From assembly GCA_003144275.1 (NCBI GenBank), contig NJBF01000036.1:1-32000 (forward strand): a stretch of 32,000 nucleotides of DNA, in the 5' to 3' direction. This document shows, one piece after another, positions 18,936 through 22,955 of this stretch (within the stretch, counting starts at the first letter, position 1; every line of letters begins with the position of its first letter). The notes under the pieces were generated by a model. It did not search any database, had not been told where the DNA came from, and worked only from the letters and a program-made list of their open reading frames with translations. A program made the translations under genes and the position numbers. The DNA comes from Candidatus Heimdallarchaeota archaeon B3_Heim (GTDB lineage Archaea; Asgardarchaeota; Heimdallarchaeia; Hodarchaeales; Hodarchaeaceae).

Positions 18936-19847
18936 TCATCTTTTGGTTGTTTTTTTATACAAATCGGCTAGTTCATCTATATCAAATTCTTCTAGAACTT
19001 CCTTCTGTTCACTTAGAGAACCAGTTTCATCCTTATCTAAAATGGCTCGTAATTTTTCATATTTGGTGCCTTTAATCAGATCTGGGTTTCGTAATTTTTC
19101 TCGTCCTTTGTCAGTAATTTTCCAGACTTGCTTAAAATCATCATATTCCAACTCACCTTTCGAACGTAATTTGCGAAGTAAACCCAAAATTTTATCCCGA
19201 TTGTATTCTACTTGGCCTGTGCGTGATATTATCTCAAGTTGACCTAAAATTGCTAATAATGGTAAGCCTAATTTCTTTTCTACAAGTATATCGAAGATAT
19301 ATATAGAAAGAAGCCTTGAAACACGGTCTTCAAGAGGAAATTTATCTCCTGTCAAGCATTCCTGAATCCACGTGAGTACTTGTTCGAAAGATTTGGGAAT
19401 TTTCCCTGTAGTGGAGAAAACACGATGTGGGAGATCATATCTATTTAACAGATCTAATTGATCAATAATCACTGAAGGATGAGTTCTTGCGATATCTACT
19501 TTGTTAAAAACAATAGCTAAAGGCTTACCTAACATCAGAGGATCGTTTAAAATTCTAAGGAATTCTCTCCGGACTTCAGGAAAACTTCCTTCTTCACTAC
19601 CATCAATAACAAATATACTCGCATCTACATGCTCCAAATATTCCTCAACGAACCTCCGTACCTCTTTTCTACCCCCAACCTCGATTATAGTAAAATTGGT
19701 TTTCCCATTGAGTATGATATCATAAGATTGATGAGCTGTTGATGGTATTCCTGGTTTAAACTCACTTTTTTGATAGGAATTTATGAGAGTAGATTTTCCG
19801 CTCCTTTCTAGCCCATATAAAAGTACCTGAATTGTATTCTTCAACAC
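18936..19847 (-). CDS. Arf-like small GTPase fused to a C-terminal winged-helix domain
   Basis: G1 GLERSGKST, G3 EVGGR, IFVIDGS, G4 NKVD; C-terminal LLRKLRSKGELEY...WKITDKGREKL pattern typical of a winged-helix wing. Confidence 0.85.
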   Translation of the reverse strand: MLKNTIQVLLYGLERSGKSTLINSYQKSEFKPGIPSTAHQSYDIILNGKTNFTIIEVGGRKEVRRFVEEYLEHVDASIFVIDGSEEGSFPEVRREFLRILNDPLMLGKPLAIVFNKVDIARTHPSVIIDQLDLLNRYDLPHRVFSTTGKIPKSFEQVLTWIQECLTGDKFPLEDRVSRLLSIYIFDILVEKKLGLPLLAILGQLEIISRTGQVEYNRDKILGLLRKLRSKGELEYDDFKQVWKITDKGREKLRNPDLIKGTKYEKLRAILDKDETGSLSEQKEVLEEFDIDELADLYKKTTKR

Positions 19848-19862
19848 TGTTCACTTATCATC

Positions 19863-20177
19863 TCATTCTATTCGTTCAATTTTAAAATATACTGGTCGAA
19901 ACCAATCGGTACAACCAACGATGTTACTATTTTCATCCACCATATGAGGAATATTTCCTCCATAAGCAAGCGTTAAAAGATCATGTCTTAAATCTGCCCA
20001 CGCCCATTCGCAAAAACCCTCTGGAGGTTTATATCGACTCTCTTTCGTAACTTTAAACTCTTGTCCATCCTTAAACCGTTCACAGGGTCTTATGTCATGA
20101 TATTTGTCCTTTACATACTCCTTTATTATATCACTATTAACAGTTCTTTTAATTACAGTTATTTTACAGTCATACAC
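19863..20177 (-). CDS. TIGR04076-family small Cys-containing protein
   Basis: CKITVIK, PCERFKDGQEF, PEGFCEWAW and CTDWFRPVYFKIERIE. Confidence 0.85.
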   Translation of the reverse strand: MYDCKITVIKRTVNSDIIKEYVKDKYHDIRPCERFKDGQEFKVTKESRYKPPEGFCEWAWADLRHDLLTLAYGGNIPHMVDENSNIVGCTDWFRPVYFKIERIE

Positions 20178-20340: not shown

Positions 20341-20733
20341 ATGAGCATTATTACATTAATTTCTGCATTTATAGCGATTCTAATCTTTATAGGCCTTAGT
20401 ATTTTTCAATTCTTACTTGTTCTAGGAAAACCATATGGAAAAGCAGCCTATGGAGGGAAATATGAGGTTCTACCAAACAATATGAGAATTTTAAGCGGAT
20501 TAGCTACCATCATATTCGTGATTGCATCATTTTTCGTAGCCGTTCGGGCTGAAATTCTTCTTAATTTTCCCTTTCCTGATTTAGCAAATTTTGGCGTATG
20601 GGTATTTGCATTTTATTTAGCTCTCAACACTGTAGCGAATTTCTTGTCTCAGAGTAAAATAGAAAAGCAAATTATGACTCCAATATCTTTGACAGCATGT
20701 ATCTGTCTTTTCTTAGTTGCTTTTAATCTCTGA
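20341..20733 (+). CDS. Conserved hypothetical membrane protein
   Basis: Four TM segments; QFLLVLGKPYGKAAYGG..VLP..MRI motif recognisable from a widespread uncharacterised family. Confidence 0.75.
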   Translation: MSIITLISAFIAILIFIGLSIFQFLLVLGKPYGKAAYGGKYEVLPNNMRILSGLATIIFVIASFFVAVRAEILLNFPFPDLANFGVWVFAFYLALNTVANFLSQSKIEKQIMTPISLTACICLFLVAFNL

Positions 20734-22130: not shown

Positions 22131-22955
22131 CTAAAATGGCCGAGGGGGTAATTCATCCTTTATTCCCTCATAAAGCTGCGAATTGATTTTGTTTAACAAT
22201 GCCTCCAGGTAAGGTTTAATGTCATTATTGTAGAAAAATCGACACATCAATAGAAAATCTGTATTTTTCCCAATTCGCTTTATTATCCATCCCTCTCTAT
22301 CCATTTCTTCTGATTCATCAGTTTCAATCCTTATTGCCTCTAACCATAAGTCCTTTTCTGATGGAATAATTGGTATAAATGATTGAAATATTGCTCGTTC
22401 ATTTGGATCATTTGAACCAAAGTTCCTGATTATTCCTTCATCTAAATCGGCAATATACAGACTTAGGAACCGCATACCCATCATATTTTTTGCTTCAAAC
22501 CGATTAATTTCAGTAGTAATGTGTTTAGAGAGATGAGAGGGAAAATGTTGTGAAAATTGTATAATTTCTTTTATTCGGGTTTGTTCCGACAAAGGTATGA
22601 CATTTAGTCTTGAAAAATTGGAGTCTACAATTGATGAGAGAAAGACGTTCAAATTTCTATCGATAGCTTCGATTTTGGCTTTTGTATACCCCACATTATC
22701 AAAAATATCCTGTAATACAATATAGGCTATTGGTATAGTGTTTTCTTCTTTCGGATTGTACATTACTAATTGAAAATTAGCTAAATGAACACTACGTAAT
22801 TTACCTTCTCCTGCGAATTCTCTAGAGAAAGCAGTTAACGCACTCACCAAAGGCCAGAGGAGAGTAGGGTCCACTTTTAAATCAATATCATCATTCAAGA
22901 AAATTTCGTGTCCAATTCCAGTCTCAATGTTACAAATAGCAAAAAGATGAATCAT
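22131..22955 (-). CDS. Longin-like domain protein (Asgard type) with second alpha/beta domain
   Basis: N-terminal pattern VDPTLL..LVSALTAFSRE...LRSV.L..FQLV...IVLQDIFD resembles longin folds; recognised by pattern only. Confidence 0.6.
   Translation of the reverse strand: MIHLFAICNIETGIGHEIFLNDDIDLKVDPTLLWPLVSALTAFSREFAGEGKLRSVHLANFQLVMYNPKEENTIPIAYIVLQDIFDNVGYTKAKIEAIDRNLNVFLSSIVDSNFSRLNVIPLSEQTRIKEIIQFSQHFPSHLSKHITTEINRFEAKNMMGMRFLSLYIADLDEGIIRNFGSNDPNERAIFQSFIPIIPSEKDLWLEAIRIETDESEEMDREGWIIKRIGKNTDFLLMCRFFYNNDIKPYLEALLNKINSQLYEGIKDELPPRPF

Follow-up and report, generated by a model that had tools for sequence, protein, structure and literature searches.

An Arf-like GTPase lacking the catalytic glutamine and joined to a winged helix in a Hodarchaeales-type family of Asgard archaea

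A gene on the reverse strand of a 32,000-nucleotide stretch of the genome of Candidatus Heimdallarchaeota archaeon B3_Heim (contig NJBF01000036.1, positions 1 to 32,000; hereafter the window) encodes a protein in which an Arf-like G domain is followed by a winged helix and an acidic tail. The gene is real and conserved and, in the searches made here, was found in only one Hodarchaeales-type family. Its product belongs to the Arf family by profile, by fold, by its G1 motif and by the Gly-Gly doublet of G3; two features that define Arf proteins, a DxxGQ motif with its Gln and an N-terminal helix, are missing from it. We favor, at a probability of roughly 45%, a reading based largely on structural models in which the protein would be a soluble, slowly hydrolyzing Arf-like homodimer bridged by its winged helices, with free switch regions and a tail that engage partners. 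It would then probably serve as an adaptor or regulator that is dimeric and gated by nucleotide, and not as a membrane-inserting Arf or a classical repressor.

Arf-family GTPases are typified by a G1 motif of the form GL[D/E]xxGK[ST]T and by a Gly-Gly doublet in G3. They are further defined by a DxxGQ motif that supplies a Mg-linked Asp and a catalytic Gln (His in Sar1 and SR-beta), by an N-terminal amphipathic helix, often myristoylated at Gly2, that couples GTP to membrane binding, and by GTP binding and hydrolysis with an interswitch toggle from the GDP to the GTP form. The Pfam Arf profile (PF00025) matches residues 4-163 of the protein with E = 3.1e-21 and 76.1 bits, against a cut-off of 22.3; the other GTPase profiles score 30.5 (Ras), 28.1 (Roc, barely above its cut-off of 27), 18.7 (SRPRB) and 18.1 bits (Gtr1_RagA, under its cut-off of 22). 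An AlphaFold2 model of the 303-residue protein, built with the family alignment as input, has a predicted local distance difference test value (pLDDT) of 84.7 and a predicted template modeling score of 0.80. In Foldseek searches with the G domain the best match is Arl13B (1.5e-14), followed by Arl3, Arf1, Arl8, Arl6 and GerdArfR1, at E-values ranging from 1e-14 to 1e-11, and the top 40 or more matches are all Arf-family proteins. VIA likewise returns Arf6 (Z 25.1; root-mean-square deviation [rmsd] 1.6, 163 aligned residues), Arl13B (Z 22.9), Sar1 (Z 22.5) and SR-beta (Z 19.7), with Rab, Ras and Rho at Z 19.2 or less. Among the matches listed by VIA no solved chain spans both the G domain and the winged helix; all of them align to residues 1-170 or so.

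The state of the G motifs was assessed in an alignment of 27 family members. The P-loop residues and the switch I threonine are invariant (Table 1), as is K116 of G4, and D118 of G4 and S145 of G5 are kept in at least 90% of members. At the start of switch II the protein reads EVGGR, with E56, V57, G58 and G59 identical in all 27 members and R60 in 26 (Cys in the remaining one). In alignments its counterpart is DLGGG in Arl13B, DVGAQ in a G-alpha chain and DLGGQ, DLGGH or DIGGQ in the Arf paralogues encoded in the same genome. Because EVGGR is near-invariant across the alignment, it is a fixed feature of the family and not a sequencing error or a chance change. The conservation pattern indicates, moreover, that the nucleotide-binding elements have been conserved and that both catalytic positions of G3 have changed in a fixed manner. 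We infer that the protein binds guanine nucleotide, GTP or GDP, through its intact G1, G2 threonine, G4 and G5. The canonical Gln-dependent hydrolysis step appears to be lost, and, by analogy with Arl13B, the protein would either stay for a long time in its GTP form or require a partner for hydrolysis. In Ras, the Q61R variant is hydrolysis-defective. Arl13B has no catalytic Gln and hydrolyzes GTP very slowly on its own (Gotthardt et al., 2015; PMC4868535). Slow hydrolysis is, on these two grounds, favored over a catalytic role of R60 as an arginine finger.

The N-terminus departs from the Arf norm as well. Strand 1 of the AlphaFold2 model starts at residue 5, with only four residues ahead of it, and thus there is no room for an amphipathic N-terminal helix; homologues begin at the same place, and the protein has no Gly2. 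The canonical Arf paralogues in the genome carry 13-25 additional N-terminal residues. The original prediction, which was made from the letters of the window, had described an Arf-like core in an Asgard setting, with EVGGR in place of DxxGQ (Asp to Glu, Gln to Arg) and with neither an N-terminal amphipathic helix nor Gly2, and in each of these respects it agrees with the analysis.

Downstream of the G domain, residues 175-245 of the model display the order H1-strand-H2-H3-hairpin at pLDDT 83-95, and the C-terminal 136 residues, modeled separately, fold as a classical winged helix (pLDDT 80.9). In VIA comparisons the C-terminal domain is closest to AphA (Z 12.2; rmsd 3.0, 78 aligned), Rv0047c (11.9), BC1756 (11.3) and Rv1176c (11.3), with lower values for VanR (11.0) and for Bacillus subtilis PadR on DNA (10.0), and with MarR types and the WHB domains of cullin and APC2 near Z 10. 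Foldseek matches the winged helix to PadR, LmrR and RosR at a probability of 0.99-1.0, yet with an E-value of only 0.03, and its matches in the ESM Atlas fall into PadR, IclR and HTH_45 clusters. None of the 27 C-terminal domains matches the Pfam PadR profile (PF03551) even at E<=1, and only weak hits to Mrr_N, ANAPC2 and HTH_45 were returned. Averaged over the family, the net charge is about 0 for the winged-helix segments, -5.7 for the tail and +3.5 for the extreme C-terminal end. Within the winged helix, helix 2 and the H2-H3 loop are the most conserved parts, ahead of the face that helix 3 exposes. Structure prediction and fold search have in this way substantiated the two C-terminal elements originally proposed, a winged-helix-like domain after the Arf core (residues 175-245) and an acidic helical tail, which is helical and conserved in the family at residues 284-297 and has a net charge of -6.

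Complex prediction points to a homodimer. The score of the predicted pair was 0.60, against 0.00 for the best of three controls; 20 of 30 proteins solved as one-chain pairs reached this mark, as did 1 of 23 known as single chains, counts that apply only roughly, since a purpose-made alignment served as the dimer input. The homodimer runs share at least 29% of their contacts with a partner pLDDT of at least 69, and two of the three runs passed. In silico, the pairing is mediated by the C-terminal domain: the predicted symmetric interface is made up of residues 179-190, 198-212, 215 and 217 of one subunit together with residues 114, 117, 123-134 and 142-145 of its partner. H1, H2 and the H2-H3 loop are placed against these partner residues, which belong to its G4 and G5 loops and its helix alpha-4, near the guanine base. 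The two copies of helix 2 are predicted to touch each other (198:198 and 201:202), as are the two Tyr215 side by side, and R217 is predicted to contact 205/206. The switch regions and the P-loop lie outside this interface. Mean column identity is 0.795 within the interface and 0.676 elsewhere (permutation p about 0.004, with burial not controlled). Near-invariant interface residues are L198, L201, G202, Q203, G211, Q212, R217, P124, L134 and F144, and the interface takes in the near-invariant LGQL, TGQ and RD motifs of the winged helix.

If the predicted complex is correct, helix 2 of the winged helix would sit on the dyad and extend across to the partner's G4/G5 loops and alpha-4, and a dimer fixed in this fashion would keep both switch regions free. 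The tethered acidic helix and the basic end could serve as a docking motif for a partner. From the models, the winged helix is probably not primarily a reader of DNA, and a role as a protein-protein module is favored. PadR-style binding in two successive major grooves is judged incompatible with the complex because the N-termini of the recognition helices meet at the predicted dyad. The near-zero charge and the predicted dimer geometry together tilt against DNA reading.

Several observations weigh against a winged-helix-bridged, slowly hydrolyzing homodimer. The third homodimer run scored 0.00, the calibration is rough for the reason given above, and the excess of interface conservation could come in part from buried core residues. 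All top structural matches of the C-terminal domain are DNA-binding regulators, and helix 3 and the wing retain the basic residues R217, K219, R225, K226 and K247. An Arg at the Gln position could aid catalysis instead of abolishing it. Finally, no conserved neighborhood hints at a pathway, the window and three distant loci (L001, L002/L003 and L004) having no neighbors in common.

Comparison with Arl13B is instructive at several levels. The best sequence match in the PDB is Arl13B of Chlamydomonas (E 1.6e-16, 63.6 bits); Arl3 and other Arf chains score at most about 55-56 bits, and Arf1 about 47. The nearest sequences outside the family score 66-69 bits and include proteins named Arl3 as well as proteins of two eukaryotes, Barthelona and Colpodella. 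For the Arf paralogues of the same genome the score is 47-49 bits. In a quick IQ-TREE analysis of 40 G domains, the family forms a clade with 100% support on a stem of 1.6 changes per column, and its neighbors are unlabeled, partly eukaryotic Arl-like sequences (SH-like approximate likelihood ratio test support 85-90) on a poorly resolved backbone. Arl13B (PDB 4M9Q, 5DI3) and the protein described here have in common the lack of a catalytic Gln, the lack of a classical myristoylated N-terminal helix and the presence of a C-terminal extension after the G domain, and their switch II segments are similar (GGRKEVRRFVEEYLEHVDA here, GGGKNIRGVWKKYLAEVHA in Arl13B). However, Arl13B has Gly rather than Arg where the Gln would be and retains the Asp of DxxG, and its extension consists of a coiled coil and a proline-rich region in place of a winged helix and an acidic tail. 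Arl13B is moreover a eukaryotic, ciliary protein of only 26-28% identity, and the likeness is one of similarity and not of established orthology. Arl13B acts as a guanine nucleotide exchange factor of Arl3 by way of its G domain and C-terminal helix (Gotthardt et al., 2015; PMC4868535), and it may be a useful functional analogue.

The fold matches of the winged helix invite a reading in which the protein is a GTP-gated DNA-binding regulator, a PadR-like dimer that reads DNA and is switched by its nucleotide state or by an acidic tail that mimics DNA. The best of these matches are wHTH (winged helix-turn-helix) transcription factors throughout, from AphA at Z 12.2 down to B. subtilis PadR at 10.0. 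The pattern ..LLRKLRSKGELEY....WKITDKGREKL over H1-H3 and the wing is PadR-like, judged against what is generally known of PadR proteins. The five basic residues listed above are conserved, and a dimer, which such regulators require, is predicted. We nevertheless consider DNA reading unlikely: net charge averages about 0 over the winged helix, no member has a Pfam PadR match at E<=1, and conservation peaks at helix 2 and the H2-H3 loop and not on the exposed face of helix 3. The predicted dyad holds helix 2 and the start of helix 3, which brings the recognition helices together when they should lie about 34 Å apart. A crude comparison by eye of the 130 nucleotides upstream of nine orthologues showed no shared palindrome that would mark an autoregulatory operator. 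The nucleotide-gated DNA binding put forward in the original prediction is therefore not supported, as the charge of the winged helix is about 0 and its most conserved surface is the predicted dimer interface. The scaffold that had been offered alongside it fares differently. A winged helix serving as a general protein-protein module is favored by the evidence, but the ESCRT-II form of that scaffold is unsupported, with a single winged helix instead of a tandem pair and with PadR- and MarR-type matches on top. In its wider version, such a scaffold would tie the GTPase to membrane-remodeling or ubiquitin-type machinery through an ESCRT-II-like or cullin-WHB-like winged helix. WHB chains do match (3rtr_A, Z 10.3, rmsd 2.7, 75 aligned; 4yii_A, Z 9.7, rmsd 1.6, 70 aligned), two family members match Pfam ANAPC2 (best E 5.8e-5), and Asgard archaea are known to encode ESCRT and ubiquitin systems. 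Yet the ESCRT-II subunits Vps22, Vps25 and Vps36 have winged helices in tandem pairs, the PadR-type matches rank higher, values of Z near 10 are common for so small a fold, and the surroundings of the gene in five loci hold no ESCRT or ubiquitin genes. We regard this version as highly improbable. Among the matches listed by Foldseek and VIA for the C-terminal domain there are no ESCRT-II chains, although such chains could rank lower.

The two remaining alternatives concern the G domain. A GTP-locked dimer could, in the manner of Arl13B, use its switch regions and perhaps also its tail to promote nucleotide exchange on, or to scaffold, one of the canonical ArfR GTPases of the genome, a role compatible with the winged-helix-bridged homodimer that we favor. 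Arl13B heads both the PDB sequence matches (63.6 bits) and the Foldseek matches, the two switch II segments resemble each other (GGRKEVRRFVEEYLEHVDA and GGGKNIRGVWKKYLAEVHA), and the nearest outsiders include eukaryotic Arl3-type proteins at 66-69 bits, compared with 47-49 for the genome's own paralogues. Five other Arf-type genes in the genome are candidate clients. Arl13B itself is Gln-less, very slow and an exchange factor of Arl3 (PMC4868535). The resemblance is one of similarity only, however, and it is accompanied by the very long stem and the poorly resolved, unlabeled tree described above; VIA places Arf6 (Z 25.1) over Arl13B (Z 22.9), and where Arl13B has a coiled coil, the extension here is a winged helix. 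Activation of this kind is, in our view, quite unlikely. It could instead be that R60 is an arginine finger acting in cis, optionally completed across the dimer, in a fast, self-activating GTPase "activated by dimerization". The conservation of R60 in 26 of 27 members, its position beside the gamma-phosphate and the predicted dimer are in line with such a mechanism, and catalytic arginines acting in cis or in trans are familiar from G-alpha, hGBP1 and MnmE-type GTPases. The predicted interface contains neither the switch regions nor the P-loop, and therefore the modeled complex is no G-interface dimer. In addition, Q61R abolishes hydrolysis in Ras, one member has Cys at position 60, and no water-positioning residue takes the place of Gln. 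These points make an arginine finger very unlikely.

The favored winged-helix-bridged homodimer can also be set against better-known systems. Asgard ArfR/AArf proteins are about 180 amino acids long and have the catalytic Gln and a membrane-binding N-terminal amphipathic helix (Vargova et al., bioRxiv 10.1101/2024.02.28.582541; PMC11914678). The Arf-type fold is shared with them, as seen for GerdArfR1 (8OUM; Foldseek rank 23, E 4e-12) and HodArfR1 (8OUK/8OUL; VIA Z 17.2), but the present family is without the catalytic Gln or N-terminal helix and has about 135 additional amino acids. It was not found, by accession or motif, in the part of the supplementary table of Vargova et al. that was searched, and literature searches returned no published description of an Asgard GTPase with a winged-helix or wHTH architecture. 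PadR regulators (AphA, 1YG2; Rv0047c, 8JXK; BC1756, 6JYI; LmrR, 3F8F; B. subtilis PadR, 5X11) share the winged-helix topology and a helix after the wing. Unlike them, the C-terminal domain has no Pfam PadR match and no net positive charge and is fused to a GTPase, and its predicted dimer contact is made by helix 2, in place of the N- and C-terminal helices used by PadR regulators. Rag/Gtr and Roco (Roc-COR) proteins offer a likeness in design, as they too combine a small-GTPase-type G domain with a permanently attached non-G domain that keeps two G domains paired; this holder is generally known to be a roadblock domain in Rag and COR in Roco, and it is predicted to be the winged helix here.

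The distribution of the gene is narrow. A word-index search returned 62 full-length or partial homologues of about 300 amino acids at 47-100% identity, the most specific name among them being "ADP-ribosylation factor-like protein". An exhaustive search of 1.84 billion representatives yielded just three clusters at 50% identity below 1e-30, with the next hit at 1e-23. The next-best hits (P0066-P0075) were considered as relatives of the same architecture and rejected, as they are tandem Arf-Arf proteins with scores inflated by their two domains. The NCBI organism labels of the homologues are inconsistent (Hodarchaeota, Heimdallarchaeota, Promethearchaeota, Thorarchaeota and Hermodarchaeota), even inside one 90%-identity cluster, and a genome-based tally was used for the distribution in place of these labels. 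A GTDB-based sample covered 301 Asgard genomes: 18 of the 20 from the window's own family have the gene, in one copy each, and no hit at E<=1e-30 came from the 281 that belong to 29 other Asgard families. Several of the genomes with the gene are closed or nearly closed, and the genome of the window likewise has a single copy.

Relatives of the C-terminal domain alone were sought separately. In the genome of the window, among open reading frames (ORFs) of at least 80 amino acids, hmmsearch gave no second match to the domain at E<=10 and a regular-expression scan gave no second carrier of the tail motif; a word-index search with the C-terminal domain returned just truncated members of the same family. 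In other families of the Heimdallarchaeia class, a hidden Markov model of the domain picks up ORFs of about 85-100 amino acids that stand alone, with weak scores (E 1e-4 to 1e-3 per genome). Four of these (L017:181-429, L018:151-456, L019:149-424 and L020:172-420) encode 83-102 amino acids and belong to no Pfam family. Aligned by hhalign, they match the C-terminal domain with 97.5% probability (E 7.5e-12, 81 columns), a value that is partly circular, the sequences having been picked with the same profile. They differ from the fused domain in having no GTPase, no acidic tail and only 23% identity, and none of at least 80 amino acids was detected in the window's own genome. Judged by sequence, such stand-alone winged helices are candidates for the source of the fused domain. 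A different small ORF, of 55 amino acids (L021:168-335; G280:C56), ends in QEEILEEFDLEKLVELYKKKSDKKRDY, the acidic-basic tail of the family without the remainder of the protein, and sits about 4.4 kb from the orthologue of that genome. It may have been left behind by a duplication of the 3′ end, or it may carry the tail motif as a small ORF in its own right.

The reading frame of the gene is intact, and its coordinates are exactly those of the original prediction (Table 1). AT-rich, TATA-like boxes at about -25 to -45 also occur in orthologues with free upstream regions, and scans of the window for tRNAs and Rfam families gave no matches. The neighbors of the gene in the window, which include NadA, an SRPBCC protein, an isochorismatase and a DUF1801 protein, are unrelated to it. 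The gene immediately upstream (19863-20177, reverse strand) encodes a Cys-containing protein of 104 amino acids with no Pfam match and ends 15 nucleotides before the GTPase start; it belongs to a family that is multi-copy in relatives, with up to six copies in one of them (G208). An operon with this gene was considered and rejected, the adjacency being confined to close relatives (at least 79% identity) and not found in G127 or G208. Two other ORFs of the window lack a Pfam match, one of 130 amino acids (20341-20733, forward strand) with the look of a multi-pass membrane protein by its sequence and one of 274 amino acids (22131-22955, reverse strand).

Table 1. Features of the GTPase gene and its product, in window coordinates
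Feature	Residues	Position	Strand	Remarks
Candidate own promoter, TATA-like GTATATTTTAAAA		19880..19892	-	Inferred; 33-45 nucleotides 5′ of start, within 3′ end of upstream gene
Shine-Dalgarno-like AAGTGA		19851..19856	-	Inferred; 4-9 nucleotides 5′ of GTG
Whole coding sequence	1-303	18936..19847	-	303 amino acids + stop; GTG start at 19847; next codon TTG, an alternative start
Arf-family G domain	1-167	19347..19847	-	Pfam, Foldseek, VIA
G1 / P-loop GLERSGKST	12-20	19788..19814	-	S16, G17, K18, T20 invariant
G2 / switch I threonine	T37	19737..19739	-	Invariant, 27/27
G3 / switch II start EVGGR, replacing DxxGQ	56-60	19668..19682	-	Alignments
G4 NKVD	115-118	19494..19505	-	Family form [N/H/S]KxD
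G5 region FSTT	144-147	19407..19418	-	Also within predicted dimer contact
PadR-like winged helix	175-245	19113..19325	-	H1 175-189, H2 197-208, H3 217-229, hairpin 233-244; AlphaFold2, VIA, Foldseek, ESM Atlas
Three short conserved helices past the wing	246-271	19035..19112	-	G248, L257, E264 invariant
Variable linker	272-283	18999..19034	-	Length differs across family (alignment gaps); low confidence, pLDDT 61 for residues 271-280
Conserved acidic amphipathic helix VLEEFDIDELADLY	284-297	18957..18998	-	Family consensus VLDEFDLDELAELY; net charge -6
Basic C-terminal end KKTTKR		18939..18956	-	Mean charge +3.5; up to KKTTDRKRKI in relatives

The protein is accompanied by five other Arf-type genes in the same genome. 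Three of these (L005, G000:C4:13059-14012; L006, G000:C96:102491-103426; L007, G000:C27:23434-24468) encode long Arf proteins of 310-345 amino acids. Their DLGGQ or DLGGH motif is normal, two of the three have N-terminal helices, and their C-terminal domain of about 130 amino acids is unrelated to the winged helix. In L005 this domain is weakly similar to the roadblock-fold protein MP1/LAMTOR3 (MAPKK1_Int, E 0.004), and L005 and L006 score 49-52 bits on the SR-beta profile; these sequence matches are consistent with possible fusions of Arf/SR-beta-like G domains to roadblock- or longin-type domains. The closed 3.16-Mb genome CP070760.1 has two further Arf-family genes less than 3 kb upstream of its orthologue (L001:3184-5086), encoding proteins of 300 amino acids (with Arf and Gtr1_RagA hits) and 179 amino acids, a GTPase cluster that does not occur in the window.

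Arf-family GTPases are key "eukaryotic signature proteins" in the argument for early membrane trafficking in Asgard archaea, and the Hodarchaeales-type lineage is often placed nearest to eukaryotes. Published work on Asgard archaea concerns the canonical, membrane-binding ArfR/AArf proteins. The family described here is a different Arf derivative kept under strong purifying selection, a presumably soluble protein without the catalytic glutamine that carries a new domain, is probably dimeric according to complex prediction and has a G domain most like those of eukaryotic Arl13B/Arl3-type proteins. Being small and presumably soluble, it should express easily. At the most far-reaching, a two-tier Arf cascade of the Arl13B-to-Arl3 kind might already have existed in the closest archaeal relatives of eukaryotes, with a hydrolysis-deficient dimer held by co-opted winged helices activating or scaffolding, in its GTP form, the canonical membrane-binding ArfR proteins of the cell and a tail recruiting a client or a further factor, or else this might be the first case of a small GTPase coupled directly to a winged helix that binds DNA; we rate the chances of such an outcome as rather slim. 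If the protein does regulate other GTPases or couple a GTP switch to other machinery, it would represent an early wiring of a GTPase network before eukaryogenesis.

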